A DNA stretch of 64,000 nucleotides from Pseudomonadota bacterium (GCA_043744215.1 JAYTVC010000012.1:19246-83245), one strand, 5' to 3'. Counted from the stretch's first letter, positions 4,658-63,689 are shown. Notes: a model not told the origin generated them from the sequence alone. Numbers and translations are program-made.

Positions 4658-4681
4658 ACTCAATATAATCAATAGATTACA
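4658..4681 (-). repeat. 24-bp AT-rich dispersed motif copy
   Basis: Minus strand reads TGTAATCTATTGATTATATTGAGT (21/24). Its last base is the A of the PfkB-kinase ATG. Confidence 0.8.
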
Positions 4682-5616
4682 TGAATACTCTGATTTGCGG
4701 CTCCCTCGCCTACGACACCATCATGGTGTTCCCGGATAAATTCAAGAATCATATTCTTGCCGATCAATTACACATTTTGAACGTGTCGTTTTTTGTGCCG
4801 GAGATGCGGCGCGAGTTCGGCGGTTGCTCGGGCAACATCGCTTACAACTTGCAATTGCTCGGCGGCAAGCCGCTGATGATGGCGACGGTCGGTGACGATT
4901 TCGCGCCTTACTCTGTGCGCCTCGACAAGCTGGGGCTGCAACAAAAACATGTGCGCGTGGTGCCGGGCACGTTCACCGCGCAGGCGTTTATCACCACCGA
5001 CCTCGACGATAACCAGATCACCGCGTTTCATCCGGGCGCGATGAGCCAGTCACATCTGAACATCATCGATGACGCGGAAGGCGTCGAGCTTGGCATCGTG
5101 TCGCCCGATGGGCGCGACGGCATGCTGCAACACGCGCGGGGATTTCGCGACGCGGACATTCCGTTTATTTTTGATCCGGGCCAGGGCATGCCGATGTTCG
5201 ACGGCAAAGACTTGCTGGAATTTGTCGACCTCGCCGACTACGTGACGCTGAACGATTACGAAGCGAAAATGCTTGAACAGCGCACGGGAAAATCCATCGA
5301 CGAATTGGCGAAAAAAGTAAAAGCCTTGATCGTCACCCGTGGCGGCGAAGGCTCGCAGATTTTTGCCGAAGGCAAGCGCCACGACATTCCCAGTGTGCGT
5401 GCGGCGTCGATTGTTGACCCGACCGGCTGCGGCGACGCCTATCGCGCCGGCTTGCTTTACGGCATCAGCAAAAATTGGGATTGGCCGAAGACGGGCCGCC
5501 TAGCGAGCCTCATGGGCTCGATAAAAATCGCCAGCCGCGGCGGGCAAAATCACACGCCAACGCGCGATGACATCGCCGCGCAATTCGCGTTGCAGTTTGG
5601 CATGGCGCTTGATTGA
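4681..5616 (+). CDS. PfkB-family carbohydrate/nucleoside kinase
   Basis: 311 aa with the DPTGCGDAYRAGLLYG PfkB signature. No Shine-Dalgarno. The ATG abuts a copy of the 24-bp motif. Confidence 0.8.
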   Translation: MNTLICGSLAYDTIMVFPDKFKNHILADQLHILNVSFFVPEMRREFGGCSGNIAYNLQLLGGKPLMMATVGDDFAPYSVRLDKLGLQQKHVRVVPGTFTAQAFITTDLDDNQITAFHPGAMSQSHLNIIDDAEGVELGIVSPDGRDGMLQHARGFRDADIPFIFDPGQGMPMFDGKDLLEFVDLADYVTLNDYEAKMLEQRTGKSIDELAKKVKALIVTRGGEGSQIFAEGKRHDIPSVRAASIVDPTGCGDAYRAGLLYGISKNWDWPKTGRLASLMGSIKIASRGGQNHTPTRDDIAAQFALQFGMALD

Positions 5617-6406
5617 TGATGCAGTGCTGACTTCGCTTCCCGTCCGCTGGTATCGCTTTTGCCGATTGCTGCTGCATTTCATTAAAGGCCTGCTGATTGT
5701 CGCGCTGATTTATCCGCGCAAAAACACTGAATGGCAACGCGCCACCGTGCAACGCTGGGCTCAACAACTGTTGCGGCTTTTGAATGTGGACGTCGTCGTG
5801 CGCGGCAGTTTGCCTGCCGTGCCGAAAGTTATCGCGTCCAATCACATCTCGTGGCTGGATAATTTTTTGATTCATTCTGTTTGCCCCGCGCACTTTATCG
5901 CCAAATCGGAAATTCGCGATTGGCCCGTGATGGGGTGGCTCGTCGCGCGCACCGGCGCGCTGTTCATCGAACGGGCGCGGCGGCATCACACGTTGAAAAT
6001 CAATCAGGACATGATGACGGCACTGGATCGCGGCGACAGCGTGGCGCTGTTCCCCGAAGGATCGACAGGAACGGGTGATCATGTGAAATTATTTCACAGT
6101 TCATTGCTACAGGCGGCCATTGGCAGCAATGCGCCGCTGCTGCCCGTCGGCTTGCGCTACCACGGCGCTGATGGCAGGCAAACTCACGCGGCGGATTATG
6201 TCGGCGATATGAGTTTTATGCAGTCGTTGCAATTGATTTTGCGCGAGCCGAAAATCGTCGCGGAAATTCACATCGGCGCAAAAATCAATGCCGCCGGCAA
6301 AACGCGGCGCGACCTGGCGCTCGAAGCGGAACAGGCCATCGCTACCCTGCTTGGCCTACCGGCTCCGCACAGGACACCGCGAACACCGCCCGATCTTCCA
6401 GCCTGA
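5567..6406 (+). CDS. lysophospholipid (1-acyl-sn-glycerol-3-phosphate type) acyltransferase; start uncertain
   Basis: NHISWLD (HX4D) and FPEGSTG acyltransferase motifs. The track start overlaps the upstream gene by 50 nt, so the true start is probably a few codons downstream. Confidence 0.75.
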   Translation: MTSPRNSRCSLAWRLIDDAVLTSLPVRWYRFCRLLLHFIKGLLIVALIYPRKNTEWQRATVQRWAQQLLRLLNVDVVVRGSLPAVPKVIASNHISWLDNFLIHSVCPAHFIAKSEIRDWPVMGWLVARTGALFIERARRHHTLKINQDMMTALDRGDSVALFPEGSTGTGDHVKLFHSSLLQAAIGSNAPLLPVGLRYHGADGRQTHAADYVGDMSFMQSLQLILREPKIVAEIHIGAKINAAGKTRRDLALEAEQAIATLLGLPAPHRTPRTPPDLPA

Positions 6407-7163
6407 ACGCGCTTAACGCGCATCGCCACAGGCAACCGGAGTCGAGGGCGATTAGATTTTTCTCCACGCGCAAGCCCAGCGCCGACCAATGGCCGCAGAT
6501 GAGCGGCTGTTGGGCACTTTGACGATTGGGCGCTTCAAACCACGGAAAAAATTCCGCCGGCGCATTTTCTATTTCACCCTTATGATCGAATTCCATGCGG
6601 CCGTCAGCGGTGCAAAAGCGCAACCGCGTCATGACATTGGTAATCACGCGCAGTCGATCATGGCCGGTTAAAGTGTCACTCCATCGATCAGGCTGGTTGC
6701 CGTACATGACGGAAAAAAATTCGCGGTAATGGTCAGCGCGTATCGCACGCTCTACTTCCCGCGCCAGGCGCAAGGCTTGATCGACAGACCACTGTGGCAA
6801 CAAGCCCGCATGCACCATCGTATAACCGTGTTCGCTGTGCATCAGCGGCTGCCGGCGCAGCCAGGCGAGCAATTCATCGCGGTCTGGTGCGCGCAAGATG
6901 GCGTCGAGCGTATCGCCGCGATAAGCTGTGGCGACACCCTCGGCCACGCAGAGCAAATGCAGATCATGATTGCCCAGCACAGTGACGGCACGGTCACCAA
7001 GGTTTTTGACAAAGCGCAAACATGCAAGCGAATCTTCGCCGCGATTGACCAGATCGCCGACGAACCACAGCACATCTTTAGTCACCTCAAAGCGGATTTG
7101 CCTGAGTAGTTTTTGCAGCGGCTGGTAACAACCCTGCAGATCGCCTATCGCATAAGTGGCCAT
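6342..7163 (-). CDS. apaH: bis(5'-nucleosyl)-tetraphosphatase, symmetrical
   Basis: 273 aa. MATYAIGDLQGC, GDLVNRG and GNHD metallophosphatase motifs in ApaH order. Confidence 0.9.
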   Translation of the reverse strand: MATYAIGDLQGCYQPLQKLLRQIRFEVTKDVLWFVGDLVNRGEDSLACLRFVKNLGDRAVTVLGNHDLHLLCVAEGVATAYRGDTLDAILRAPDRDELLAWLRRQPLMHSEHGYTMVHAGLLPQWSVDQALRLAREVERAIRADHYREFFSVMYGNQPDRWSDTLTGHDRLRVITNVMTRLRFCTADGRMEFDHKGEIENAPAEFFPWFEAPNRQSAQQPLICGHWSALGLRVEKNLIALDSGCLWRCALSAFRLEDRAVFAVSCAEPVGQAG

Positions 7164-7986: not shown

Positions 7987-8063
7987 GCGCCCGTAGCTCA
8001 GTTGGATAGAGTGTTGGTTTCCGAAACCAAAGGTCACAGGTTCGACTCCTGTCGGGCGCGCCA
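7987..8063 (+). tRNA. tRNA-Arg (anticodon CCG), CCA encoded
   Basis: Hand-folded cloverleaf. Acceptor GCGCCCG/CGGGCGC, anticodon stem TTGGT/ACCAA, loop TTCCGAA (anticodon CCG), T arm ACAGG-TTCGACT-CCTGT, then G-CCA. Confidence 0.9.
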
Positions 8064-8067
8064 AAAA

Positions 8068-8091
8068 ATTCAATGTAATCAAATAGTTACA
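8068..8091 (-). repeat. 24-bp AT-rich dispersed motif copy
   Basis: Minus strand reads TGTAACTATTTGATTACATTGAAT (20/24 to consensus). Begins 5 nt after the tRNA CCA end. Confidence 0.8.
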
Positions 8092-8223: not shown

Positions 8224-10041
8224 TCAAAACTCCACTTTGAGCCCCAAAGAATATTTCTGATGCTTGAAGTTTAGTTTGCCGAACGACCGGTCGTAATCGA
8301 CAAAGCCGACCACGCCCTTTGAAAATTGCGCCGAGACGCCCACGCCCGCAGTACCGTAATCTTTATCGAGATTGAGTTGCGGATCGATATTCACTTGCAC
8401 TGTGTCGCCGACAAGTTGTGCTGTGCCGGTCTTGCCGCTGGTTTGCGTCTGGCGTAAATATTCCATGCGCGCGTGAGGGATCAGTACGCCCCATGTGGTG
8501 CTGATGAAATATTGCATTTCGCCGCCTAGCGCCAGGGTCGTGGATGTCAGGGACTGATCGCTGACAGCTATCGGCGATTCGCCGTATTCCCTATAGGCAT
8601 CGACCTTCGATTGCAGGTATTCGAGCCGGCCGTAGGGTGTGACGATGAATGCACCCTCGCGATAATCATAACCGCCCGTTAACGACAAACCTATGCCGGT
8701 AGCTTTGGTGTTGGCGGTCGCGCTGCCGCCGCTCAGTTCCTGCCGCGTTAAATCATACGTGTTGCGACCCCAAGTAGCGGCGAAATCCACAAAGGTTTTA
8801 GGCGACGGCGCGAAGGCTCCATAGGCAACCATGCTATAGCCCGTGGCCGTTTGCTTGCCGGCTTCGACTCCCATGTCCGAGCTGGATTTCAACGCGCCGA
8901 TGGCGGCCCCCACGGCGGCAGCTTTGCTGACGCGATTGTCTGCGCCCACCGTCAGGCCCTTGGTGTTGACACTGAGGCCGCCGTCGGTTTTGTCGGTCAC
9001 GTCTACGCCGCCAATGACGTAACTGCCCCATCCGCTCGCTGTAGCGCGCTGCGTTTTGTCTTCGCATTCCTCATTGGTGTTGCTGGCACCGGTATTGCTG
9101 ACACTACCGCACCCGCCGCCGGGCAAGGGCACGCCGCGGCCATTAACGGCAATGTCGATATCGTGACGAAAGCCCGGTGTGCGGCCCTGAAAGCGCAAAT
9201 AGCGAATGCGTTTGTTGATATTGTCCAACTGGGTTTGCACGCCGATTTGCGTGGTCAATAAATTCGCCGCCGTTTGTTGCGTGGCGATTTGCTGCACTTG
9301 TTGCGCAGAAAGCCCTGCAGCGGCGGTGACGGAAAAGTTTACCGAACTGATGCCCCCGGTAAATGCGCCGTTCTGGGTGCCGATGGTAGCGGTGACCACT
9401 CGCCCGGTATTGCGGTTTGGCAAATTGAATGGCAGGCTGGCCACACCGTTTGCATCAGTCAGCGAAGTCCCGAGCGTTTGGAAGCCCGCCGGGCCGCTCG
9501 TGCTGTCGTAGGTCGTCCAGTACACTTTTTCTCCTGCAAGGATGCCCTCTTCCTGAACGCTGACGATCAGCGGTTGCGCTGGTGTGCCGAGTTTCACCGT
9601 CTGGTTGTCGCCGGAGACAATGCTTAACACGCCGGCGGACAAGTATTGGAAGTTGAGTGTGCCTTTTACCGCAGGCGCTGCCGTTGCATTGACATCAATG
9701 GTGTAGGCGCCGGAAGGCCGCCCCGCTGCGATGAACGTTTGGATCGGAGCAACGTCCCCAGTATTTAAAAATCCAACGTAATCAATTAAACCATATCCGA
9801 CGGGGCAATTCGCATAGACCGTTACTGACTCCCCGCTACGTATCACCCTGGTGCTGTTAATCACGGCTTCTTTTCCTTTGCGCGCGCTCACCCTCGCCGC
9901 TGGAGACGGGGCAGGCTTTACTAGCGGAACAAAATCGGGGAAACATTCCTCTGGCACGGTTTGTGCCGTGGAAGTGCCTGCGCAGAATAAAAGCGTCGCG
10001 AAGACGAAGTATTTATGTAATGTAGAAGTTGTCATGGTCAT
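8224..10041 (-). CDS. autotransporter-type outer membrane protein (605 aa); start may be the second ATG at 10035
   Basis: Signal peptide, beta-rich passenger, a Q-rich linker helix (QQIATQQTAANLLTTQIGVQTQLDNINKRIRYL) and a C-terminal ~280-aa alternating-hydrophobic barrel ending in KVEF. Confidence 0.75.
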   Translation of the reverse strand: MTMTTSTLHKYFVFATLLFCAGTSTAQTVPEECFPDFVPLVKPAPSPAARVSARKGKEAVINSTRVIRSGESVTVYANCPVGYGLIDYVGFLNTGDVAPIQTFIAAGRPSGAYTIDVNATAAPAVKGTLNFQYLSAGVLSIVSGDNQTVKLGTPAQPLIVSVQEEGILAGEKVYWTTYDSTSGPAGFQTLGTSLTDANGVASLPFNLPNRNTGRVVTATIGTQNGAFTGGISSVNFSVTAAAGLSAQQVQQIATQQTAANLLTTQIGVQTQLDNINKRIRYLRFQGRTPGFRHDIDIAVNGRGVPLPGGGCGSVSNTGASNTNEECEDKTQRATASGWGSYVIGGVDVTDKTDGGLSVNTKGLTVGADNRVSKAAAVGAAIGALKSSSDMGVEAGKQTATGYSMVAYGAFAPSPKTFVDFAATWGRNTYDLTRQELSGGSATANTKATGIGLSLTGGYDYREGAFIVTPYGRLEYLQSKVDAYREYGESPIAVSDQSLTSTTLALGGEMQYFISTTWGVLIPHARMEYLRQTQTSGKTGTAQLVGDTVQVNIDPQLNLDKDYGTAGVGVSAQFSKGVVGFVDYDRSFGKLNFKHQKYSLGLKVEF

Positions 10042-10106
10042 CTCTCCGAAAGACTTCAGTATTTTTAAAGGCCTGTTGATTTCTTGAAAGCGTAATTTAC
10101 GAAAAA

Positions 10107-13100
10107 TTAAAACTCCACTTTCAATCCCAACGAAAATTTATCTTCCTTAAAATTTCTCTTTTTGAATAATTTTTCAAAATCAAAAAATCCCGTTACGCCT
10201 TTGCCAAATTGCGCTGATACACCGAGCGCTGCGTTGCCAAAGCTGTCGTCCTTGTTCAGGTCAGGGTCTACCTGCAATTGCACCGAGCTGCCCACGGCTT
10301 GTGCATTAACCATCGCCGCGCTTTGAGTTTGCTTCTGGGTTTCAATCCGCAGATGCGGCACCAGCACACCGAAACTTGTACTGGCGGTGTATTGTAATTC
10401 ACCCCCCAGCGTCATCAGACTTGCCGTAAGTTCCTGATCACCTACCGATATAGGTTCCGTACCCTTTTCCACGTAAGCCTTAACATTCGACTTGATGGAG
10501 TCGTAGCGTGCATAGGGCGTGAACACCCAGGCGCCTTGACGAAAATCATAGCCGGCTGTGAATGAAAACGCGACGCCTTTTCCTTTGGTGTTAGCGAAAG
10601 CTGTGCCACCAACAGGCTCAGTGCGCTGCAGATCGTATTGACTATTGCCCGTGGTGAGCGCCACATCAATAAAGCCGTTGTCACCCGGGGCAAACGAACC
10701 GTAAGCGACAAGACTATACCCTGCCGTCTCCTGTTTGCCTGCGTCGCCGGCTAAATCGGTGGTGGATTTCATTGAACCGAATGCGGTACCCATCGCGGAT
10801 TTTTTGCCCAGGCGATAATCGCCACCCATCGTAATTCCGTTTGTGTTGATATTGATGCCCGTTAAATTGTTTTCCGTGACGTTAAATCCGCCAATAATGA
10901 ATGTACCCCAACGACCGGTTTTAGTGTCTCGCGTTTTTTCTTCGCAGGCGTCTTGATTGCCGGCGCCGCCTTTGCCTCCCGACGACCCACAGCCGGCTGC
11001 ACCGCCTCCATCACCCGGAAGCGGCACATTCTTGCCTCCCACGGAAACGTCAATGTCCCGGTTGAAATCTGCGCTCCACTCTTGCGAACGTAAATACCGC
11101 GCGCGTCGATTGATGTTGGCAAGCTGGGTCTGCAAACCGATTTTCATTGCCAATAAATTGGCACTTGCTTGTTTACCGACGATTTGTTGCACTTGTATAG
11201 GCGTCATCGTAAGCGGCCCTGCGCCTATTGCAGCACCGCTGATATTGATCGAGCGCGGGCTGCCGCCTGCATTATCTTCAATAATCAACAACCCACTGCG
11301 TACACCTACGGCCGATGGTTTGAACGTAATATTTATCGCGCATGTCGAATTGGCCGTTAAGGTAGCAGGGCAATTATTAGTTTGAGAAAAATCGGTGCTG
11401 GAGATGCTGATGGCCGTAATTCTCAGATCCGCAGTACCGCTGTTTTTAAGGGCCACACTATTTTGCGTTGACGTTCCGATTACAGCTTGACTGAAACTCA
11501 AATTTACCGGAGTGAGCGTTACAACCGCAGAGGGTGTTACCACCCCCGCGCCGCTCAAGGAAATAGTTCGCGCGCCGCCAGCTGCGTTGTCGTTAAGTGT
11601 GATGGTGCCAACTATATTGCCTGCGACTGTCGGTTGAAATGTCACACTGATCGTGCAGGAGGCGCTCGGCACAATGGCTTGCGTACAAGTATTGGTTTGC
11701 TTGAAATCTCCAGCACTTACTACAACGCTCGATACCGTCAATACCGCGGTGCCCGTATTGGAAATGGTGATATTTTGTACGCTCGTGGCGCCGATTGGCG
11801 TTGCCGCAAATACCAAGCTGGCGACAGAAATTGACACAACTGGCGCAGAACCTGTTCCGCTTAACGGCACGGTACGCGGGCTGCCGCCTGCATTGTCGGT
11901 GATAGAAATACTGCCCAATTGAGATCCTGCTGCTACCGGTGTGAAGCTCACGCTAACGCTACATGTTCCATTCGGCGCAATGGCCTGCGTGCAGGTATTG
12001 GTTTGGGTGAAAGCTGTGCTAGCAACAATGCTGGTAACAGTGAGCGCCGCGCTTCCGCTGTTGGTTACGGTAATAGTTTTGATTACGCTCGTTGTACCAA
12101 GAGCAGTGCTGAAGGCGAGCGTTGCAGGTGCCAGACTAACAGCAGGGCTGGTAACGTTTGCACCGGTGCCCGACAATGTTATGCCATGCGGACTGCCGCT
12201 GGCGTTATCGGTGATTGTAATAACCCCATTGCGCGCGCCCGTAGCGGTGGGCAAGAATTTTACGCTGATGATGCAATTGGCGTTGGGTGCCAAGGGCTGA
12301 GTGCAGTTATTGGTTTGTGCGTAATCGCCAGTGAGAGCGATATTGGAAATACTGAGGCTGGCCGTACCAGAATTACTAACGGTGATGGTTTGCGCTGTGC
12401 TGGTGGTATTGATCGAGGTGGAAGTAAAGACCAACGCTGTTGGCGCGAAATTTATAATTGGGCTTAAAGGGGCAACTCCCGTACCGGTCAGATTCACGAC
12501 ATGCGGGCTGCCTGGTGCATTGTCCACGAGGGTGAGCGTGCCGGCATTCGACCCCACCGCCGCAGGTGAAAACGAAATGTTATAGCTGCATGATGCGTTG
12601 GGTGCGATACCCCCTTGCGGGCAATCTGTGGTAAATGTGTAGTTGGCCGTGATTGCGACGCTTGTGAATATTAAATTGGCGTTGCCGCTATTGGTGACTG
12701 TCACCGTCTTGACGGCTGACGTTGTTCCGACTGTTGCGGAAAAACTTAAAGTCGTTGGCGACAAGACAATACCCGCAGCAGTGCCAGTGCCACTCAACGT
12801 AATAGTGCGCGGGCTGCCGCCCGCGTTGTCAGAGATGGTAATCGTCCCTGCACGGACGCCTGGTGCGGGCGGTGTAAAAGTTACGTTGATAGAACATGTA
12901 CCGTTGGGCGCAATGGCCGCCGCACAGGTATTGGTTTGCGCATAGTCGGCACTGGCGATAATGCTCGAGATGGATAACGCAGCCGTGCCGCTATTGGTCA
13001 CCGTCAAGGTTTGTGCGGCTGTCGTTACAGCGACAGGCGAAGTAAAACTCAAACTGGTTTGTGACAAGCCCACGATCGGCGCCAGCACACCTGTGGTTAG

Positions 13101-14999
13101 GCCATTCAACGCAACGCTGCGAGGGCTTCCGCCAGCATTATCACTAATAGTAATTGCACCGTTGCGCGTGCCCGCTACTGTGGGTGTGAAAGTGACGGTG
13201 ATGGTGCATGTCCCATTGGGCGCAATGGCCTGCGTGCAATTGTTGGTTTGTGCGTAATCGCCAGTCGCAGCGACAGTTGCTACTGTGAGCGTTGCAGTAC
13301 CGCTATTAGTGACGGTGATGGTTTGCGCTGGGCTGGTTGTGCCGACGATAGCCGTAAAACTCAGACTTGTATTGGAAAGAGTTACGACTGGCGCTGTCCC
13401 GGTACCGCTTAACGCAATAAGTGTGGATCCGCTGCCTGCATTGCTGGCTAAGGTGAGCGCTCCATTGCGAGCGCCCGTTGCTGTCGGCGCAAACAATACG
13501 CTAATCGTGCATGTACCATTCGGAGCGATAGCCTGCGTGCAAGTATTGGTCTGGGTGAAATCACCGCTGGCTGCGATGCTTGTGAATATTAAATTGGCGT
13601 TGCCGCTATTGGTGACGGTCACGTTTTGTAAGGCTGCGTTAGAACCGACGGGGGTTGAGGCAAAGCTAAGCGAAGCATTCGACAATGATATTGCGGCGGC
13701 CGTCCCTGTACCACTTAATGCCACGCTGTGAGGGTTGCCAAGCGCACTGTCTTTCACGCTAATGCTGCCAGAGCGCACGCCCGTGATAGTCGGTGTAAAA
13801 CTCACAATAATGGCGCATGTACCACCGGGTGCAATACTCGTCGGGCAATTATTGGTTTGCGCAAAATCGCCGTTTGCGGTGATGCTGGAAATCGTCAGGT
13901 TCGCTGTCCCTGTATTGCTTAGGGTAATAGTCTGGGTAGTGCTAGAGGTGTTTAAGGCAGTTGCGCTAAAGGTAAGCGCTGAAGGGGAAAATCCAATCGA
14001 CTCGGCCAGCCCGACACCAGCTAACGCGACGCTATGCGGGCTACCTGCCGCATTATTGGAGATATTCAGACTACCTGATCGGTTGCCCGCTGCGGTTGGC
14101 GTAAACGTAACCAGCAAAGTACATGCGCCACCTGGCGCAACAGGCTGGCTGCAATTATTCGCCGTCACGCTGAAATCACCCGTGGCGGCAGCGCTCGATA
14201 CAACTAAATTGGCACTGCCTAAATTGTTCACCAACAAAGATAACGTACTACTGGAACCCAATACAGTGTTCGGAAAATTTAGATTAGACTGCACCTTAAT
14301 GAGCGGTGCCGGGACCACTCCAGTACCGCTCAAACTAACAGTGTGCGGGCTGCCAGGCGCATTGTCCGAAATGGTGAGGGTTCCTGCTAGCACACCAACA
14401 GCGGTGGGATTAAATGTAACCGTAATCGTACAGCCGCCTTTAGTACCTGGTGGGATATTTACAGATAAACAGTTATTGGTTTGACTGAAATCCCCCGACG
14501 CCGTGACAGAAGTCACCACAAGATCTGCAGTGCCAGTATTGTCGATAAATACCGATTGCGGGGCACTTTGAGCGCCAACTGTGGTGTCGGGAAAGACCAA
14601 ATTACTTGGCGACACGGAAATTGACGGCGCGGTGGGCGGTGGGTTAACAACAAAAGTCGCCGAACCTGCAGAATTTAACAGTGTATTAAAAACATTTACC
14701 TGTTGATTTCCCAGCGCTGCGCTAACAACAGTCAATGTTAATTGCGATCCTCCATTGCCGGTAGCTGCGCTGTAACTTCCACCAAAGACACTAAAAATAT
14801 AGGAATTGCCACCGTCCGTTGCGCCTGTATCGCTGACACAACTGGCGCTGAAGAATATCGATTGGCCAAGCTCAACCGGATTGGGCGTGGCTTGCACAGA
14901 GCAAGATCCTAATGCGAAAACTGGCCCGCAAAAAAAACTGGCGCTAAAAAAAATTAGGTGGCCGAGCAAAATTCGAAGCATATTTTTCTTCGTTTTCAT
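10107..14999 (-). CDS. giant autotransporter-type adhesin with 11 Ig-like (ASH / choice-of-anchor-D-like) repeats
   Basis: ATG at 14999 gives the signal peptide MKTKKNMLRILLGHLIFFSASFFCGPVFALG (the track ORF opens at 15032). Eleven ~103-aa repeats are followed by a linker and a barrel paralogous to the 8224 gene, ending in KVEF. Confidence 0.8.
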   Translation of the reverse strand: MKTKKNMLRILLGHLIFFSASFFCGPVFALGSCSVQATPNPVELGQSIFFSASCVSDTGATDGGNSYIFSVFGGSYSAATGNGGSQLTLTVVSAALGNQQVNVFNTLLNSAGSATFVVNPPPTAPSISVSPSNLVFPDTTVGAQSAPQSVFIDNTGTADLVVTSVTASGDFSQTNNCLSVNIPPGTKGGCTITVTFNPTAVGVLAGTLTISDNAPGSPHTVSLSGTGVVPAPLIKVQSNLNFPNTVLGSSSTLSLLVNNLGSANLVVSSAAATGDFSVTANNCSQPVAPGGACTLLVTFTPTAAGNRSGSLNISNNAAGSPHSVALAGVGLAESIGFSPSALTFSATALNTSSTTQTITLSNTGTANLTISSITANGDFAQTNNCPTSIAPGGTCAIIVSFTPTITGVRSGSISVKDSALGNPHSVALSGTGTAAAISLSNASLSFASTPVGSNAALQNVTVTNSGNANLIFTSIAASGDFTQTNTCTQAIAPNGTCTISVLFAPTATGARNGALTLASNAGSGSTLIALSGTGTAPVVTLSNTSLSFTAIVGTTSPAQTITVTNSGTATLTVATVAATGDYAQTNNCTQAIAPNGTCTITVTFTPTVAGTRNGAITISDNAGGSPRSVALNGLTTGVLAPIVGLSQTSLSFTSPVAVTTAAQTLTVTNSGTAALSISSIIASADYAQTNTCAAAIAPNGTCSINVTFTPPAPGVRAGTITISDNAGGSPRTITLSGTGTAAGIVLSPTTLSFSATVGTTSAVKTVTVTNSGNANLIFTSVAITANYTFTTDCPQGGIAPNASCSYNISFSPAAVGSNAGTLTLVDNAPGSPHVVNLTGTGVAPLSPIINFAPTALVFTSTSINTTSTAQTITVSNSGTASLSISNIALTGDYAQTNNCTQPLAPNANCIISVKFLPTATGARNGVITITDNASGSPHGITLSGTGANVTSPAVSLAPATLAFSTALGTTSVIKTITVTNSGSAALTVTSIVASTAFTQTNTCTQAIAPNGTCSVSVSFTPVAAGSQLGSISITDNAGGSPRTVPLSGTGSAPVVSISVASLVFAATPIGATSVQNITISNTGTAVLTVSSVVVSAGDFKQTNTCTQAIVPSASCTISVTFQPTVAGNIVGTITLNDNAAGGARTISLSGAGVVTPSAVVTLTPVNLSFSQAVIGTSTQNSVALKNSGTADLRITAISISSTDFSQTNNCPATLTANSTCAINITFKPSAVGVRSGLLIIEDNAGGSPRSINISGAAIGAGPLTMTPIQVQQIVGKQASANLLAMKIGLQTQLANINRRARYLRSQEWSADFNRDIDVSVGGKNVPLPGDGGGAAGCGSSGGKGGAGNQDACEEKTRDTKTGRWGTFIIGGFNVTENNLTGININTNGITMGGDYRLGKKSAMGTAFGSMKSTTDLAGDAGKQETAGYSLVAYGSFAPGDNGFIDVALTTGNSQYDLQRTEPVGGTAFANTKGKGVAFSFTAGYDFRQGAWVFTPYARYDSIKSNVKAYVEKGTEPISVGDQELTASLMTLGGELQYTASTSFGVLVPHLRIETQKQTQSAAMVNAQAVGSSVQLQVDPDLNKDDSFGNAALGVSAQFGKGVTGFFDFEKLFKKRNFKEDKFSLGLKVEF
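11230..14630 (-). repeat. in-frame tandem array, 11 x ~309 bp
   Basis: Each unit encodes ...L.F....G..S..Q.ITV.NSG.A.L.I.S...GD..QTN.C....AP.G.C.I.V.F.P...G.R.G...I.DNAGGSP....L.G.G. Boundaries were derived from my residue counts. Confidence 0.8.
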
Positions 15000-15054
15000 A
15001 ATGCTTCTCTCTAAATAAAAATGAATATCCATCCGATCAAATAGATACGTCGTC

Positions 15055-16671
15055 TTAATTCACTGGTACAAACAGAAAATCTCCCGCTTCATGCCCTGCG
15101 TACTTTATCGGGGCGTAATCGGGACGTTGCGTTACCTTTAAACGTGTGGCGCGATATAAAAATCGTGCGGACAGTTCTGCGTGAACTTTGCGCGCCTCGA
15201 TTGGCTCCTTCACGACGTTCAACACCTCGAGAAAACTTTTGGCGAACATGGAATTTTTTCCGCCACCGCCATCGACGACGGGTTCTAATCCGCCTGACGT
15301 GAGCGCAACCCGGGCTTTATTTTTGCCGAGGGCGGCGAGCACGGCGCGGCGCGCTTCTTCGCTGATTTCGTTTTCCGAATGGGTCAGCGCGGCACGGGTC
15401 ATGGTACCGGCATAGCAGGAATCGGCGATGACCAGAATATGTTTGGCCGGCATGGCGATGAGCTGGTCGGTGATGTCGATAATGGAAATCCAGTTGGTGA
15501 CATTTTTTTGCTCGCCGTCAATGGGAATCCAATAGCCGCGTTGGTTCACCGCGTCGATTTCGCCGTGGCCAGCGTAATACACCAGCAGATTATCGTTGGC
15601 CGAAAGACGATTGCGCAAGTCATTGAGCGCCAGCAAAATGTCGCGTCGCGTGGCGTCTTGCAACAAAGTCACTTTGAAACCATAACGCGTTTCCAAAATA
15701 TTTTTTACGTCGCGGCCATCCGCAAGGGGCGTGTCGAGTTTTTCGTATTTGCGGTAATTCTGGTTGGCGATGACCAGCGCGTAGTAATTGCCCGACGGCG
15801 TGAGGTCCGCCTTGCTCGGGAAGCCGGGTAAGGGCGCGGGCTCGTTCGATGTTGATTCGCTTTTAATCAAGGTGAGCTCGGCATTGGCGCGCTGGCCTTG
15901 CTTGTCGATGGCGACAATTTTTACCTGCACCGGGCCGGCCGTTAAGTCGATGGCGGCCTTAAACAAGCCGTTATCGTCAAAGCTTTCTTGTTTCTCATTC
16001 ACCAGCAATGATGCGAGACCTGCGGGCGCGGTCACTTTGCCGATGAGATCGCGCGTGGGCAGCGTACCGCGCACGCGCACTATCGGTGCTGTGCCACGGG
16101 TTTTGACAGACGACAATACGACGGCGGGTTCGATAATTTGAATGGACGGCACTTCCATATTGCTGCGGACGCCGCCAGCCATGCGAAATAGATCCTGCGC
16201 CTTGGCCGAATCGCGCTTGACGCCGAGACCGCGCTCATACAACGCGCCCAGATTCACTTGCGCACGGGCATATTTTTTATCGGCCGCTTTTTGATACCAC
16301 TGGGCGGCGGCAAAATAATCCGGCGCGCCGGCAATGCCTTTTTCGTACAATTCGCCAACATTAGTCTGCGCATCTTCATCGTCCGCATGGGCAAACGGCA
16401 GCCAGATATTCAGCGCTGCGGCAGGATTAGTGTTAGATGACACATACTCACCACCCTTTTGTTCGCAATCGGCAATGGTGGTTTTGAGCGCGCGGCGGGG
16501 GGTGACGCCCGACTGATAAGCGCCGAGCTTGCGCACCTGGCCGGGTATAAGGCAATCGACCACGAGTAGTTTGTTTTCGTCATTGGTGGTGGCTGGCAGA
16601 TCGGCACAACTCGCAGCGAATACGGCCATCAACAGTACCATCACAAAATAATATTTGGGTTGTTGTTTCAT
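15055..16671 (-). CDS. exported lipoprotein with Sel1 repeats and a C-terminal caspase-fold (peptidase C14) domain
   Basis: Lipobox FAASC. Sel1-like AAQWYQKAADKKYARAQVNLGALYERGLGV. C14 dyad contexts LLVYYAGHG (His) and VIADSCYAG (Cys). Confidence 0.8.
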   Translation of the reverse strand: MKQQPKYYFVMVLLMAVFAASCADLPATTNDENKLLVVDCLIPGQVRKLGAYQSGVTPRRALKTTIADCEQKGGEYVSSNTNPAAALNIWLPFAHADDEDAQTNVGELYEKGIAGAPDYFAAAQWYQKAADKKYARAQVNLGALYERGLGVKRDSAKAQDLFRMAGGVRSNMEVPSIQIIEPAVVLSSVKTRGTAPIVRVRGTLPTRDLIGKVTAPAGLASLLVNEKQESFDDNGLFKAAIDLTAGPVQVKIVAIDKQGQRANAELTLIKSESTSNEPAPLPGFPSKADLTPSGNYYALVIANQNYRKYEKLDTPLADGRDVKNILETRYGFKVTLLQDATRRDILLALNDLRNRLSANDNLLVYYAGHGEIDAVNQRGYWIPIDGEQKNVTNWISIIDITDQLIAMPAKHILVIADSCYAGTMTRAALTHSENEISEEARRAVLAALGKNKARVALTSGGLEPVVDGGGGKNSMFAKSFLEVLNVVKEPIEARKVHAELSARFLYRATRLKVTQRPDYAPIKYAGHEAGDFLFVPVN

Positions 16672-16745
16672 GCTGCGCTCGCTGCCGAAGATTACGTTGA
16701 GTGGAGGGTGACGAACTACCGATGAAATGTAATCGCCCGCGCAAA

Positions 16746-17474
16746 TTACTTGCGGCTGGAATTGATGATGACTTCTGATGCGCCTTCGACAGGGCCTCTT
16801 CGAGCTTGCTCGACGCCGTCAAGCGTAATACTGCTTGTGCCACGGGCACTGGTGAATGCCTGCCGGATACGGCCTCCAGTATAACGGATGCTGCCTGCAC
16901 CGCTAGTATCTGCCCACAGGTTTTCCACTGCGCCGCCTTTGATGGTAATGTCGCCCGCGCCATCGATGGCTGTACGCACGTCTTTCGTTGCTTCGATAAG
17001 CTCGATAGCGCCCGCGCCCTTTACGCGCAGGCGAGACGGCCCGAGGCGCTTGGCTTTGATGTGCCCTGTGCTGACCGACAAATCTGCCGGGCCGTTCATC
17101 GAGTCGATGTCAGCCTTGCCTACAAAACCGATGGCTTGTAGCGCAGTATCCGCCGGCACTTTGACCGTCAGATCGGCAGACTCTTCGATTGGGCTGAAGC
17201 TACCTGATCTATTCAAAGCTACATTCTTCTCTTGATAACTCACGCGCAGCACACCTTGATTGACCATCGCTTCTAATGCTTGCTGGTTGCCGCGTTTCAA
17301 TTGCAACAAGATGGTTTTTCCGGCATGGGATTCAATATTTATTTTTCCGTTGAAGCCGGAGAAATCCAGTGTGGTCGCATTGAACTGGCTCGTCGCCTGC
17401 GCATAAGTCCACGGACTCGCGCTGGCCAAAATCAGCGTTGTCAACATCCATAATTTATAGTGCATTTTTCTCAC
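16746..17474 (-). CDS. exported GIN/DUF2807-like (adhesin-head-like) protein
   Basis: Signal peptide ending in AQA, then repeated G.G.I...G beta-helix-like segments. The family assignment is by eye only. Confidence 0.45.
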   Translation of the reverse strand: MRKMHYKLWMLTTLILASASPWTYAQATSQFNATTLDFSGFNGKINIESHAGKTILLQLKRGNQQALEAMVNQGVLRVSYQEKNVALNRSGSFSPIEESADLTVKVPADTALQAIGFVGKADIDSMNGPADLSVSTGHIKAKRLGPSRLRVKGAGAIELIEATKDVRTAIDGAGDITIKGGAVENLWADTSGAGSIRYTGGRIRQAFTSARGTSSITLDGVEQARRGPVEGASEVIINSSRK

Positions 17475-17549
17475 AATTTTTTTGTATACCTAATAATTTT
17501 GCAAAATAAATTCAGCAGGGCTGCTATTTTCCCGCATTGCCGGATTTTT

Positions 17550-17573
17550 CATAACTATTTGATTATAAACAGT
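17550..17573 (+). repeat. 24-bp AT-rich dispersed motif copy (degenerate)
   Basis: CATAACTATTTGATTATAAACAGT. The reverse complement keeps AATCAAATAGTTA. Lies 15 nt before the 12-bp stem-loop. Confidence 0.55.
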
Positions 17574-17588
17574 TTTTAAGGTTGTTTT

Positions 17589-17616
17589 GGCACAGGCGAG
17601 TTGCCTCGCCTGTGCC
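17589..17616. other. 12-bp GC-rich stem-loop after the lipase-like gene (no U-tract in the gene direction)
   Basis: GGCACAGGCGAG-ttgc-CTCGCCTGTGCC. Confidence 0.7.
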
Positions 17617-17643
17617 ACGCTGTCAGAATGTTTTGCGCAGGTC

Positions 17644-18963
17644 TCAATTCGCCGTAAACGAATAAACGCCCGCCTCATTTTTACTGACCACGACGTCAAG
17701 AACGGGCGTGGGGCTTGCGTTGCCATCCTTGCCGTTTTCAGCGCCTACATCTACGGTTTTGGTTAGCAGGGTTCCGCCCTTCGATGTCGACACTTGAACC
17801 GTTGCCTTGCGTCCTGCCCCGTTAGTGAAATGGTTAATGCCCATACGGTAGGTGCCTGTCTGGATGACCGCGGGGTCGCACGACACGTAATAGTGTTCGG
17901 GGCCGTCTGCGATGGTGTTGTCCACATCGAGAAAGCCTGCATCACCTGCTCGGGATTCATAATAGACATGCGCGCCGCTGGGTTCGAAGGTGTGCAGATC
18001 GAGATCGCCGAGGCCATCCCACGTTAATGTCACGCTGAACGCGCCCGGTGTGCCCGACGTAGGGGGTGACGCGAGGGCCTGCATGGCGGTGGTGATCATC
18101 GTATCGACTAGGTTGCGTGCCGCCCGCGTGGGATCAAGGTAAGTTTCCACCAGGCCATGGCCGGACAGGTCGGATACCGACACAGGCAAAATAATATTGA
18201 TCGGCGGCACGGAACCCGCCCCTTGAATACGCAAGCTGTTGATCACCAGATCGATATCGGCCAGCAGATAATCGCCGCGCAAGGTCGGCGATGCCGGTGC
18301 GACGTGCACTGCCTTCACACTTGCCTCACCGACCTTGGGGGAAATATGGTCATACGCATGGTTCATAAACAGATTGCCCTGCGAATGGGCCACGAGCATC
18401 AGTTTCTGTTGTTGCACGGCCAGCGCATCGAGGCGGGTGTTATGCTCGTTGTAGTCCGCTTCTGTCGGTGGGTTACTGAGCAGGCTGGATAGTGCGGCCA
18501 TGGTCTTCGTGGCAATGTCGGTGTATAGCTGCGAAAAAAATCGGCTAATATTGGGAATGAATCCTGTTAATTTATCCGTCAAAGGTTTATCGAATGTGAG
18601 ACTCTCCCAAAAAAATTCCCATCGATTTCCCAGCTCTCCGCTCGCATCAATTTCTGCGGCGCGTTGCATAAATGTTTCGGCGAGATCCTGTAAGAGCGTT
18701 GCGCCTGCTGTGGAACCGGTGTGGTTGTAAAACACTTCATACTGTACGGGCTCGTTGTTGAACTTTGTGCCGCGCATGCTCTCCAGCTTCGCCAGAGCCG
18801 CCTTTGCTTGAAACTCTGTATTCCCCACCCCGTTAAAATACCCCAGGGTATAACCTGTGGCCAAGCAAAGATCCGTATCAGCGGCGACGGAAACTATGGG
18901 TGAAGAAGCAGCGGCTAAGCAAAAAGCGGCTGATAACAAATATTTTTTCAGATTAGTTAACAC
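17644..18963 (-). CDS. exported alpha/beta-hydrolase (lipase-like) with a C-terminal beta-sandwich domain
   Basis: Signal peptide and the nucleophile elbow VAHSQGN (GxSxG). The C-terminal ~120 aa (LTWDGLGDLDLHTFEPSGAHVYY...VDNTIADGPEHY) resembles the DUF2135/YfaP-type domain. GTG start overlaps the upstream stop. Confidence 0.6.
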   Translation of the reverse strand: MLTNLKKYLLSAAFCLAAASSPIVSVAADTDLCLATGYTLGYFNGVGNTEFQAKAALAKLESMRGTKFNNEPVQYEVFYNHTGSTAGATLLQDLAETFMQRAAEIDASGELGNRWEFFWESLTFDKPLTDKLTGFIPNISRFFSQLYTDIATKTMAALSSLLSNPPTEADYNEHNTRLDALAVQQQKLMLVAHSQGNLFMNHAYDHISPKVGEASVKAVHVAPASPTLRGDYLLADIDLVINSLRIQGAGSVPPINIILPVSVSDLSGHGLVETYLDPTRAARNLVDTMITTAMQALASPPTSGTPGAFSVTLTWDGLGDLDLHTFEPSGAHVYYESRAGDAGFLDVDNTIADGPEHYYVSCDPAVIQTGTYRMGINHFTNGAGRKATVQVSTSKGGTLLTKTVDVGAENGKDGNASPTPVLDVVVSKNEAGVYSFTAN

Positions 18964-19498: not shown

Positions 19499-19534
19499 TT
19501 TCGTCTCCTGAGTAGGCAGCTTGCCCGTGTAATA

Positions 19535-19562: not shown

Positions 19563-19669
19563 ACATTTTGTGACAAATATCACTTCAAGCATCACTTATG
19601 GCAGCACTGGTTACGTCCGATTTTGCGTGCCGCCGATAATGCCGCTTGCTGGATAAACATCGAACCATT

Positions 19670-50130: not shown

Positions 50131-50162
50131 TAAAACTACTTGAGTGGAATATTGTGGACGAA

Positions 50163-50186
50163 TGTAACATATTGATTATAATCATT
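50163..50186 (+). repeat. 24-bp AT-rich dispersed motif copy (palindromic-core variant)
   Basis: TGTAACATATTGATTATAATCATT. Confidence 0.85.
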
Positions 50187-50215
50187 TTTGTTATTCGTTC
50201 GAGCAAACTGGCGAA

Positions 50216-50511
50216 TCAAGCCTTCCGCGTATTTTCTTCCGCCCGCTTTATTGCCCGACTCACTGTTGCATAATGCACGCCGAAAAAATCAGCAATCTCT
50301 TGCTGAGCGTAATCCCCAGTGGCATAGGCCGCAGCCATCGCCGCCTTCGGGTTTTATGTTTGCTTTGATAATGCTCAAGCGGTTGGGCCGCGTGGACGAT
50401 GTGCGCGGTTGGCGTCAAGATGGCGGCGCGGGCGGCGGGACATGATGCGTTGTCTGGACGTGCAAATACTGGTGTCAAGTCTTGCAGGCCTAGCGCGCCT
50501 ACTTTTCGCAA
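50216..50511 (-). pseudogene. C-terminal remnant of a transposase-like (COG1943 long-form, DnaA-like HTH tail) gene, frameshifted and 5'-truncated
   Basis: One frame reads NPKAAMAAAYATGDYAQQEIADFFGVHYATVSRAIKRAEENTRKA-stop (stop at 50216-50218). Upstream residues (..AAQPLEHYQSKHK) are in another frame, joined at an A-run near 50350. No catalytic N-terminal part is present. Confidence 0.45.
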
Positions 50512-50523
50512 TCTATGATCATT

Positions 50524-50547
50524 TTTAACTCATTGATTATATTCAAT
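50524..50547 (+). repeat. 24-bp AT-rich dispersed motif copy
   Basis: TTTAACTCATTGATTATATTCAAT. Ends 2 nt before the ntrX stop codon. Confidence 0.75.
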
Positions 50548-54658: not shown

Positions 54659-55913
54659 CAGGAAGTATTTGCCCGTTTATTATGAGTAGCGGCGGCAATG
54701 AAAGGGAAACCGCGTCGGCATGATGCGCCAAAAACTTCTCGATTTGTTGCTGGTTTTCTTCACGAAATACCGAGCACGTAACGTACAACAATTTACCACC
54801 TTGCGCGAGGCAGTGCCACAGGGCTTCCAGCAGACGGGTTTGCTGGACGGCGAAACTATGTAAATCTGACGGCCGCCGCGCCCACTTGATGTCGGGGTGG
54901 CGCTTCACCACGCCCGAGCCGGAACAGGGCGCATCGAGCAGGATGCGGTCGAACGGTTTGCCATCCCACCAGGCCTGGGTGTCGGCCGCATCGACACATT
55001 TTGTTTGCGCGGCAAAACCCTGGCGCGCAAAATTTTCTTTCACCTGGCTAAGACGCCCCGCTTCATTGTCGAGGGCGAGTAATTTTACATCGGCTGTTTC
55101 AAGTATGTGCGCCGCCTTGCCGCCGGGCGCAGCACAGGCATCGAGCACGCGCTGCCCGTCATGCAAATCGAGCAGCGGTGCGGCAAGTTGTGCCGATGCA
55201 TCCTGCACCGACACGATGCCGTCACGAAAGCCCGGCAGTTTTTCCACGTTGACAGGGTGTTCGAGCAGGATCGATGCATGCTCCATCAACCGCGCTGGAA
55301 TATTTTCTGCGGCCAATAACGCGAGATAATTTTCTGCGGAAATTTTTTTGTGATTTACACGAAGAGTCATGGGCGGATGCAGATTGCCCGCATCCAGTAT
55401 ATTTGTAACATATTGATTATAATCAATTTTTATTTTATCAATCCACCACTGCGGATAGCTGTAGCGGGCTTCTTCGTCGTCTTTTTGCACTTCTTCAATC
55501 AGGGTTTCTCGCTGACGCAAAAAATTACGTAGCGCGCCGTTCACAAAACCTTTGGCGTGGGGCAGCTTGGCGCGCTCGACGCTTTGCACGGCGTAATCGA
55601 CCACGGCATGCGCTGCGGTGCGCGTGAATTGCAGTTGATACAGCGCGACCAGCATGAGGTTAATGAGCGCCTCTTCTTGAATTGGTTTATGCGTCAGCCG
55701 ATTGAGCACCGCGTGCAGCAAACCGCCGTGCCGGCAGACACCGAACGCGATATCTTGAATCGCCGCACGCTGATGGGGAGTGAGATTCGGAAAACGCCGC
55801 CAGATATCGGCCAGCGTGGCATTCAAGTTGCGGCCCGACAGCGCCGCGCCGACGGCGTCGCTGCCGTGCCGCTGGATGTCAAGCACGCGCCATAGCTCGC
55901 AGGCGCGCGACAC
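54612..55913 (-). CDS. rsmB: 16S rRNA (cytosine967-C5)-methyltransferase; GTG start, exact start uncertain
   Basis: NusB-like N-terminal domain plus a SAM MTase domain ([33 protein letters not shown]). Confidence 0.85.
55404..55427 (+). repeat. 24-bp AT-rich dispersed motif copy inside rsmB (perfect 16-bp palindrome core)
   Basis: TGTAACATATTGATTATAATCAAT. The core ATTGATTATAATCAAT is self-complementary. On the coding strand it encodes part of [11 protein letters not shown]. Confidence 0.85.
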
Positions 55914-56724: not shown

Positions 56725-56807
56725 GGTGTGTCCTTTTCTGAAATTTGCGTGCCGTTGCGACGCGCTTGTTAGATTATAGCGCGCCGCAAAAATTCAAGGC
56801 CTTGGCT

Positions 56808-57755
56808 TCAAACATCGAATTTGTCGCCCGCTTTAATGTCATTCGACGCCAAAAACTGCATGCTTGAAATCCGTTTACCGCCCGGTTTTTGCACTTCGTC
56901 GAGCTGCAAACCGCCGCTGCCGCAATCGATTGTAACTATTTGATTATTATGAATATTTATTGTGCCGGGCGCTGCGTGGTTTGCGCTTGCCGCAACCTGC
57001 GCGCGCCAAATTCGTAATGTTTCGCCCTTCAATTGTGTAAACGCGATCGGATACGGATTGAACGCACGAATTTTGCGTTCGATTTCTGTGGCGGATAAAC
57101 GCCAATCAATGCGCGCTTCCTGTTTGGTGATTTTGTGCGCGTAGGTGACGCCTTCGCTCGGCTGTTTGGTGCGCGCCCATTTATTGTCGCCGGGCCCGCT
57201 GCATTGCTGCCGCGCCAGCGCATCGACGATGCATTGCGCGCCCAGTTCAGCGAGTTTATCGTGCAGCGAAGCGGTGGTGTCATCCGGCTCTATCGCCATC
57301 GCGCGCGCGAGCAGCATGTCGCCCGTGTCAAGGCCCGCATCCATTTGCATAATGGTGATGCCGGTTTGTTTATCGCCCGCCTCAATGGCGCGATGTATCG
57401 GCGCCGCACCGCGCCAGCGCGGCAACAGCGAGGCGTGAATATTCAAGCAGCCCAGGCGCGGCAAGTTGAGTAGTGCTTGCGGCAAAATCAAACCGTAGGC
57501 CGCGACAATCATCGTATCGGCTTTGATTTCGTCTATGGTTTTTTGAACTTCGGCGCTTTTAAGCGAGGCGGGCTGCAACAACGGCAGCCGGTGTTCGAGC
57601 GCCAATAATTTTACGGCGCTGGCACTGAGTTTCATGCCGCGGCCTGCCGGTTTATCCGGCTGCGTGAGCACCAGGGCTATGTCGTGGCCGGCGCGAATCA
57701 GCGCGCCCAGCGCCGCCGCCGCAAAGTCGGGCGTGCCGGCAAAAATCAGGCGCAT
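56808..57755 (-). CDS. fmt: methionyl-tRNA formyltransferase
   Basis: ATG at 57755 (MRLIFAGTPDFAA). HASLLPRWRGAAPI motif. Downstream of def. Confidence 0.9.
   Translation of the reverse strand: MRLIFAGTPDFAAAALGALIRAGHDIALVLTQPDKPAGRGMKLSASAVKLLALEHRLPLLQPASLKSAEVQKTIDEIKADTMIVAAYGLILPQALLNLPRLGCLNIHASLLPRWRGAAPIHRAIEAGDKQTGITIMQMDAGLDTGDMLLARAMAIEPDDTTASLHDKLAELGAQCIVDALARQQCSGPGDNKWARTKQPSEGVTYAHKITKQEARIDWRLSATEIERKIRAFNPYPIAFTQLKGETLRIWRAQVAASANHAAPGTINIHNNQIVTIDCGSGGLQLDEVQKPGGKRISSMQFLASNDIKAGDKFDV
56931..56954 (+). repeat. degenerate 24-bp motif copy inside fmt
   Basis: TGTAACTATTTGATTATTATGAAT (19/24 to consensus). Confidence 0.5.
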
Positions 57756-63606: not shown

Positions 63607-63640
63607 TGCTGCATGCTTAGCTGCTTTGCACTCAATTAAA

Positions 63641-63667
63641 ATAGCCGTCGTAAGACGGCTATTTTAT
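63641..63667 (+). terminator. intrinsic terminator of topA
   Basis: AGCCGTC gtaa GACGGCT followed by ATTTTATT. Confidence 0.75.
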
Positions 63668-63689
63668 TCAATAAAATCAAATGCATACG
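63666..63689 (-). repeat. 24-bp AT-rich dispersed motif copy (left part degenerate)
   Basis: Minus strand reads CGTATGCATTTGATTTTATTGAAT. It is adjacent to, and slightly overlaps, the topA terminator. Confidence 0.55.

Follow-up and report, generated by a model that had tools for sequence, protein, structure and literature searches.

A dispersed AT-rich motif with the layout of an IHF site in a Gallionellaceae-like chromosome segment

A 64,000-nt stretch of a Pseudomonadota genome (GCA_043744215.1, JAYTVC010000012.1:19246-83245; hereafter the window) carries an AT-rich 24-bp motif in many dispersed copies, which raises the question of whether these copies are a repeat that has spread through the chromosome or sites that a cellular protein keeps in place. 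An initial annotation of this DNA had recognized the binding consensus of integration host factor (IHF) within the motif and had considered both a lineage-specific repeat and the operator of an abundant regulator. From the comparisons described below, the motif is most likely a protein-bound architectural mark, and not a mobile element or a promoter.

Occurrence, placement and anatomy of the motif

The identical 24-mer TGTAACATATTGATTATATTGAAT previously noted at positions 19670 and 40136 is indeed present at both, while shuffled sequences lead one to expect no such pair. Defining a strong copy as one that matches the 24-mer at 18 or more of its 24 positions, we counted 13 distinct sites in the window, compared with a mean of 0.02 in first-order Markov simulations and with a single site across the orthologous loci of other Betaproteobacteria, which total 1.41 Mb. 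Together with three or four weaker copies, this gives a total density of ~16 per 64 kb, i.e., about one per 4 to 5 kb, a frequency that holds for the relatives of this chromosome as well, with match scores forming a continuum from 24/24 down to 15/24. The 11 further positions named by the initial annotation all hold copies (15/24 to 22/24), and the copies at 852, 30368 and 32166, plus a marginal one (15/24) at 36443 from a full scan of the window, can be added to them. Of three suggested weak echoes, the one at 22419 (plus strand) reaches 15/24, while those at 60694 and 63886 score 10/24 and 9/24 and are unconvincing; a 15/24 match lies at 60690. The dispersed motif is real, and its frequency far exceeds chance.

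Non-coding DNA, 8.2% of the window, accounts for 9 of 13 strong copies (P = 8e-8 in a binomial test), copy density being 25-fold higher there than in coding DNA. The description of the copies as mostly intergenic thus holds; the other four strong copies lie within genes, among them two, at 55404 in rsmB and at 56931 in fmt, whose coding location had gone unremarked. Copies directly follow a terminator hairpin at 19670 and 63666 and the 3′ end of a tRNA at 8068, and others are found 0 to 170 nt ahead of the next start codon. Among 68 copies from several genomes, many occupy intra-operon junctions of 30 to 50 nt, where the four-nucleotide spacer (N4) of the motif sometimes doubles as a Shine-Dalgarno sequence. 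Spacing along the window is more even than random (coefficient of variation 0.53 to 0.60 versus 0.95; P = 0.008 to 0.045), which is suggestive only, because gene borders constrain the positions.

Outside the window, every genome with the exact 24-mer bears the label Gallionellaceae, Gallionellales or Burkholderiales. A degenerate pattern gave repeated matches in the same set of genomes and one match each in other taxa. The motif is lineage-specific, as the initial annotation had suggested, and only some of the Gallionellaceae-type genomes have it. A similarity search of E. coli with the motif returned chance-level matches only, and in the literature we found no paper linking Gallionellaceae with IHF.

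We read the motif in the orientation ATTCAATATAATCAATATGTTACA. When 68 copies that lack terminal repeats, taken from several genomes, are combined into a logo, the consensus is TAAAAT-ATTCAATATAATCAA-WWAS-TTA-YA with a few further A/T positions behind it, and the information content of the logo is zero beyond a span of ~35 bp. The A-tract at logo positions -4 to 0 was absent from every search pattern and is an independent observation. N4 differs between copies (TATG, ATAG, TTAG, TGAG, TAGG and others). Most copies contain a perfect TATAAT at positions 7 to 12, and in some the outer TGTAA...TTACA ends and the left arm ATTSAWTAT make up a ~32-bp imperfect dyad. Both core variants described earlier, a direct repeat and a palindrome, exist; the latter, ATTGATTATAATCAAT, is a perfect 16-bp TTGAT-N4-ATCAA at 55404.

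No significant hairpin was predicted for the motif, whose minimum free energy (-0.1 to -2.8 kcal/mol) does not improve on that of shuffled sequence, and in a search with Rfam covariance models only tRNA reached the gathering score, leaving the motif without a family. A structured RNA or a repetitive extragenic palindrome (REP) hairpin was rejected on these grounds. Inverted repeats of at least 9 nt are absent from the flanks of 15 of 17 copies, and the copies in the window have no terminal inverted repeats, shared flanks or target duplications. Lacking single-strand structure, an Rfam family and terminal inverted repeats, the motif acts as duplex DNA: the element is a duplex of ~30 bp and, within the window, neither a REP nor a MITE (miniature inverted-repeat transposable element).

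Likeness to IHF sites and conservation in place

The string WATCAANNNNTTR, the IHF core, occurs 15 times in the window versus 2.2 times expected (7-fold), and 12 of the 15 occurrences are motif copies. As the initial annotation had stated, the core is intact in 11 of the 13 copies that it listed and broken at 22641 and 63666. The IHF consensus, WATCARNNNNTTR, and the core of the phage lambda H′ site are quoted in PMC2709558. Aligned on ATCAA, the motif (AAAATA-TTCAATATA-ATCAA-TATG-TTA-CA) and lambda H′ (AAAAAA-GCATTGCTT-ATCAA-TTTG-TTG-CA) are identical at 18 of 29 positions. That is, the A-tract, WATCAA, N4, TTR and the following CA of lambda attP H′ all share the register of the motif, and the likeness to an IHF site is full, extending to an upstream A-tract of which no use had been made before. 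In contrast to the dispersed motif, lambda H′ is one site inside a recombination locus, and its stretch between A-tract and core contains GC (GCATTGCTT) where the motif has a near-invariant AT-rich ATTCAATAT. A longer lambda H′ string is 100% identical in lambdoid phage genomes. Separately, lower-GC Neisseriaceae loci from L192 (Alysiella crassa) and L187 (Neisseriaceae bacterium B1) have a high raw density of WATCAANNNNTTR, 27 to 43 matches per 64 kb, without the extended motif.

In the nearest relatives, L193 and L195, whose NtrX is 81% identical to that of the window, the IHF core reaches 15 per 64 kb, the same density as in the window, versus 4.6 in outgroups. Similarity to the 24-mer is lower in both, and they retain the AT-rich left arm and an AATCAA-N4-TTA core. 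Since only core density and an AT-rich arm are kept, what is conserved across lineages is IHF-type architecture. An IHF site is built in just this way, from a conserved core and an arm that needs only to be rich in A and T, and the pattern is that of selected binding sites instead of copied elements; the variability of N4 is likewise as predicted for IHF. One motif-bearing genome, L008, encodes an IhfB (3986-4270) that is 60% identical to E. coli IhfB, keeps GDRIEIRGFGSF and RNPKSG, and retains the equivalents of R42, E44, R46 and P64. No IhfA was found in the sequence searched, and the IhfB result applies to L008.

At 55404, the copy within rsmB occupies identical codons in the relatives L090, L193 and L195-197. 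When RsmB is aligned with seven of its outgroup counterparts, neither insertion nor deletion is seen; a peptide that varies among them (e.g., QQYGGRAAE) has been recoded to KIDYNQYVT. The in-gene copies thus arose by substitution and not by insertion, and the earlier idea of a repeated element "rather than independently evolved" sites does not hold for them. The fmt copy at 56931 is shared with L090, L193 and L195, where 71% of its alignment columns are invariant versus 25 to 42% in the flanks, and the rsmB and fmt copies persist at the same codons across four lineages that are ~74% identical in DNA. Conservation at orthologous positions, which the initial annotation had left to be checked, extends to the copy at the ntrX stop codon as well, where a single ancestral copy scores 17/24 in L195 and 15/24 in L193. 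It does not extend to the copy at 45948, present in the window lineage only, which indicates turnover as well as conservation. The motif is under selection.

Some 16 copies per 64 kb, the non-coding bias and the even spacing suit an abundant nucleoid protein; as regards the suggested operator of a nucleoid or global regulator, the copy number fits the former better than an ordinary regulator. The explanation that we favor, with roughly even confidence, is that the motif represents a family of high-affinity sites for heterodimeric IHF or a very close IHF/HU-family relative, maintained by selection. Each copy offers a duplex with an A-tract (TAAAAT), ~9 AT-rich bp and AATCAA-N4-TTA. Bound IHF would impose a sharp U-turn on the DNA at gene borders, the bends being positioned after terminators or tRNA and before the next start codon, and operons without a spacer would take their sites inside coding sequence. 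With about one site per 4 to 5 kb, the array could organize the nucleoid locally and insulate or couple neighboring transcription units, while incidentally offering mobile DNA a favored place to land or assemble; the MITE of two sister isolates described below would have adopted the same site as its core. Upkeep would proceed by selection on point mutations and not by transposition, which the data bear out in part. IHF as the binder, the roles of the bends and their exploitation by mobile elements are what we infer from these features.

Several observations weigh against IHF sites as the explanation. The assignment is based on resemblance to a consensus, and two copies, at 22641 and 63666, lack the TTR. 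In the window, conservation of the left arm ATTSAWTAT and of some N4 positions goes beyond what E. coli IHF is known to need, which may point to another protein, instead of or besides IHF, or to a copying process; N4 subfamilies such as ATAC-TTA-TA recur across several genomes. Sister lineages that have IHF lack the motif, so IHF alone does not explain the array of this clade. In addition, the motif is AT-rich and contains TATAAT, overlapping with promoter or melting-site roles, and 10 of the 11 intergenic copies in the window are co-oriented with local transcription, which a purely architectural role does not predict.

Mobile DNA, rival explanations and known systems

Mobile DNA seems to use the site. 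In the SLM_LV1_0830-G10 and N11 isolates, the exact 24-mer occupies the center of a MITE ~130 bp long, which has terminal inverted repeats of 20 bp (CTAGCAGCCTGTCGGACTTA / TAAGTCCGACAGGCTGCTAG) and is found at L016:2890-3090, L031:1490-1690, L015:4920-5120 and L014:5870-6070 and often nested with a second repeat (...CTACACTACGCTCTGCTTCGCATAGGACAAGAACCCCTGCGGGG...). The terminal repeat of these sister genomes is absent from the window, where flanking inverted repeats are lacking too, and a MITE in the window was rejected; the element seems to have taken over the site and not to have given rise to it. The window has a 337-bp insertion of its own (50187-50523, minus strand) in the spacer between ntrX and a gene for a tetratricopeptide repeat (TPR) protein, one that neither L193 nor L195 has. 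The insertion is enclosed by a direct repeat of the motif (50163 and 50524), each copy keeping one ancestral flank, and carries a frameshifted relic of a ~74-aa helix-turn-helix (HTH) gene (...YAQQEIADFFGVHYATVSRAIKRAEE). Other Nitrosomonadales have intact relatives of this gene (P0124, P0126) at unrelated loci, beside decayed Y1-transposase-like sequence (L199:3445-3972). Processing of the Y1-transposase or REP type, which the HTH relic suggested, was discarded, as the motif has no hairpin and the HTH-gene relatives in L199 and L200 have no flanking motif.

How do other explanations compare? Conservation beyond the IHF core would be accounted for if the motif were the operator or binding site of some other abundant DNA-binding protein of this lineage, for example a nucleoid-associated one or a dimeric regulator reading TGTAAMAT-ATTSAWTATAWTSAAT-ATKTTACA, with the likeness to IHF sites a coincidence. 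The ~32-bp dyad of some copies, the perfect palindrome at 55404 and the absence of the motif from sister lineages that surely have IHF all point this way. We nevertheless consider it unlikely: most copies are asymmetric, the outer left arm TGTAAAAT is found in a minority of them only, relatives retain just the asymmetric core and the AT-rich arm, and a three-element register match to H′ is hard to obtain by chance. Moreover, at logo position 4 C outnumbers G by 53 to 10, which destroys an FNR/CRP-type half-site; such a box, which only the minority palindromic variant fits, was rejected as a candidate. Somewhat less probable still is that the copies are recognition, attachment or target sequences of a mobile-DNA system, or eroded MITE cores, and mark past insertion or excision. 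The 337-bp insertion within a motif duplication does resemble attL/attR or a long target duplication, and the Y1-transposase-like neighborhood of the intact HTH genes, the MITE core in two isolates, the departure of gene content from L193 at the 40136 copy and the copy abutting a tRNA 3′ end beside an island-like block all fit. Yet only one such insertion was seen, HTH relatives elsewhere stand without the motif, the copies in the window are bare of terminal repeats and shared flanks, and those in rsmB, which arose without an indel, and fmt have been stable in four lineages. The targeting of host repeats by mobile elements, known for REPs (PMC1525189), would also be compatible with a site that primarily serves a host protein.

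A promoter element, with TATAAT at positions 7 to 12 or TATATT on the other strand as the -10 hexamer and an AT-rich UP-like tract driving the downstream gene, is a poorer candidate again, even though most copies have the perfect hexamer, 10 of the 11 intergenic ones in the window aim at the next gene after an upstream terminator, and in several relatives a start codon lies 2 to 25 nt beyond either motif end and a Shine-Dalgarno sequence is slight or missing. A conserved -35 element is lacking, the logo holds close to zero information upstream of the A-tract, and consensus promoter scans call few copies, often on the wrong strand and without enrichment. The strongest conservation (ATCAA, TTA) falls downstream of the -10 hexamer, where promoters are not conserved. 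Placement argues similarly: the 8068 copy has a tRNA end on one side and a convergent gene on the other, the 25274 copy sits between a stop codon and a terminator, many others in short intra-operon junctions, and htpX has a conserved promoter-like sequence of its own apart from the copy inside fmt. Among the 68 copies, 12 lie between convergent genes versus 6 between divergent ones, and 16 are co-oriented with transcription versus 12 opposed, a weak bias that, like the former count, is based on crude gene calls. Least probable, in our view, is a DNA-uptake signal of a naturally transformable lineage, spread by biased uptake and recombination in the manner of the DNA uptake sequence (DUS) of Neisseriaceae and the uptake signal sequence (USS) of Pasteurellaceae. 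Like these, the motif is short, lineage-specific, grossly over-represented in one clade, present on both strands in genes and spacers, often near terminators, and derived by point mutation, in genes within variable peptide segments; the apparent clade dialects, the evenness of spacing and dprA, placed in the window by synteny, agree with such a role. Unlike them, it is AT-rich, IHF-site-like and strongly biased to non-coding DNA, with a 25-fold density excess where that of DUS and USS is about 3-fold. The graded scores, without a dominant perfect core, the in-register match to an IHF site and the retention of an IHF-type core only in the nearest relatives are not what uptake predicts, and no uptake receptor is known or was identified. 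If it were nonetheless true, we would be dealing, improbable as that is, with an AT-rich uptake-sequence system that mimics an IHF site, the third to have evolved independently, in a naturally transformable Gallionellaceae lineage, and the even spacing, in-place origin of in-gene copies and clade dialects would reflect uptake-driven molecular drive and not binding by a nucleoid protein.

Coming back to IHF sites, the closest functional analog would seem to be the RIP/BIME-1 (bacterial interspersed mosaic element) repeats of E. coli. Their L-linker (...AAATTCAATATATTGCA...) is a repeat in all 5426 E. coli genomes at a median of 16 places and has the string ATTCAATATA in common with the motif's left arm. 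As in those repeats, whose BIME-1 linker is reported to carry an IHF site (PMC3333891), we see a dispersed multi-copy IHF-type site, mostly extragenic; several copies come after terminators or a tRNA, four strong ones are inside genes, and many are found just ahead of start codons. Unlike them, the motif is denser, belongs to a different host lineage, has some copies that arose in place within coding sequence, is free of flanking REP hairpins or any conserved flanks, and shows no sign of dispersal by a REP-associated transposase. Without REP palindromes, membership in RIP/BIME-1 fails, and the initial proposal of a RIP/BIME-type element is not borne out in the window, where flanking palindromes and terminal repeats are missing. 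Correia elements (CREE) of Neisseria are MITEs with a central IHF site and can bind IHF (PMC2649163). Their layout is matched by the ~130-bp MITE of the SLM_LV1 isolates, both hosts being Betaproteobacteria; in contrast, the window copies are bare, and there is no sequence similarity to Correia repeats. Membership in the MITE/Correia class thus fails in the window and holds for the derivative in two isolates.

Repeated IHF sites have so far been known as passengers, of REP clusters in E. coli and of MITEs in Neisseria, which makes a role for the cell hard to separate from that of the repeat. What is notable here is a dispersed IHF-type site that stands alone, is dense, and is also written into coding sequence in one branch of an iron-oxidizing family. 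If IHF does bind, this would be a natural experiment on a chromosome-wide array of sharp bends, opening its effect on transcription-unit insulation, nucleoid folding and mobile-DNA capture to study. The motif can also be used as a signature for metagenome binning and for tracing the lineage.

Further candidates were tried and rejected. For a sigma-54-linked IHF site, the pattern TGGCAC-N5-TTGCW gave 43 matches with at most two mismatches versus 50.8 expected, none linked to a copy. Fur, ArgR, ArcA and dif/Xer sites do not fit in a by-eye comparison with consensus sequences, a resemblance to the XerD arm falling on the variable N4 positions.

Individual copies and their surroundings

The window is a bacterial chromosome segment of ~54% G+C, Gallionellaceae-like, with gcvPA/gcvPB, dgkA, a tRNA-Arg gene, two-component and extracytoplasmic function (ECF) sigma-factor genes, a large XrtA/PEP-CTERM exopolysaccharide cluster and the run def-fmt-htpX-rsmB-DUF4390-ntrY-ntrX. 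A phage or plasmid origin was rejected, given no phage match and a content of chromosomal housekeeping and exopolysaccharide genes.

At the left end, a 19/24 copy (852-875, minus strand) lies antisense inside gcvPA with its IHF core intact (AATCAATGTGTTG). The next, 21/24 at 4658-4681 (plus strand), fills the 31-nt spacer from the dgkA stop codon (4649) to the ATG of a pfkB-family kinase gene (4681), a spacer in which a Shine-Dalgarno sequence is absent. In the relatives L062, L073 and L080, start codons are similarly found 2 to 8 nt from either motif end; start codons abutting the motif hint at short-leader or Shine-Dalgarno-independent initiation. A 5316-bp sequence from another sample (L201, Logan SRR22198269) encodes a GcvPB identical to that of the window, the only protein compared, and ends ~44 nt past the 4658 copy.

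Four nucleotides past the 3′ end of tRNA-Arg(CCG) (7987-8063) lies a 20/24 copy (8068-8091, plus strand); it faces a convergent autotransporter gene and thus has no downstream gene available. The tRNA gene adjoins an island-like block (8224-21366) with the autotransporter, a 1641-aa protein, an OmpA-like lipoprotein and several open reading frames (ORFs) without a family. Two of its proteins (15055-16671 and 20368-21366) have weak, sub-threshold similarity to the EACC1-associated caspase-type domain. Within this block, a weaker intergenic copy (15/24; 17550-17573, minus strand) has an intact core (AATCAAATAGTTA) and the next gene 75 nt downstream, and one of the two exact copies (19670-19693, minus strand) follows a bidirectional terminator hairpin (19696-19721) at a distance of 2 nt, with the next gene 129 nt on. 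Similarly, a weaker 17/24 copy at the far end of the window (63666-63689, plus strand), with its TTR broken, comes right after a terminator-like hairpin downstream of a topA-like gene.

The ECF sigma-factor gene contains a weak antisense echo (15/24; 22419-22442, plus strand), a doubtful member of the family, and is preceded at 39 nt from its start by a 20/24 copy in a divergent spacer (22641-22664, minus strand) in which TTR has changed to ATA. The 20/24 copy at 25274-25297 (plus strand), between the stop codon of a response-regulator gene (25304) and a terminator hairpin (25251-25266), is the sole intergenic copy opposing local transcription. Two further copies are associated with glycosyltransferase genes, one in sense orientation inside a WecG/TagA-family gene (19/24; 30368-30391, minus strand), its core degraded to ATTCAACAGGTTA, and a weak one at the junction of two such genes (16/24; 32166-32189, minus strand).

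The other exact copy (40136-40159, minus strand) separates an XrtA/PEP-CTERM ATPase gene from a GHL10 lipoprotein-like gene, the likely ATG of which is ~42 nt downstream; from this copy onward, gene content departs from L193. The lineage-specific 19/24 copy (45948-45971, minus strand) occupies the spacer between manC and a polysaccharide-export gene. In the same spacer, a block of ~70 nt (~46029-46099, minus strand) is nearly invariant in the window, L193 and L195, the rest having diverged; it could serve the XrtA/PEP-CTERM export operon as a promoter, a leader or a small RNA.

Around the 337-bp insertion, the right member of the duplicated pair (21/24; 50163-50186, minus strand) keeps the ancestral downstream flank, and the left member (20/24; 50524-50547, minus strand), 1 nt past the ntrX stop codon, the upstream one. 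A near-perfect palindrome, TTATTGCGCCGCAATAA (~50114-50136, minus strand), is located 26 nt downstream of the 50163 copy, before the TPR gene, and is common to L193 and L195; it may be an operator. The start of the 128-aa TPR ORF at 50130 was probably called too far upstream.

Finally, both the palindromic variant in rsmB (22/24; 55404-55427, minus strand) and the copy in the 3′ part of fmt (19/24; 56931-56954, minus strand) are read in sense orientation. Separate from the latter, the fmt-htpX spacer contains CTTGAAT-N13-TATAAT (56745-56772, minus strand), conserved in L090, which by its sequence looks like a heat-shock (sigma-32-type) promoter for htpX.

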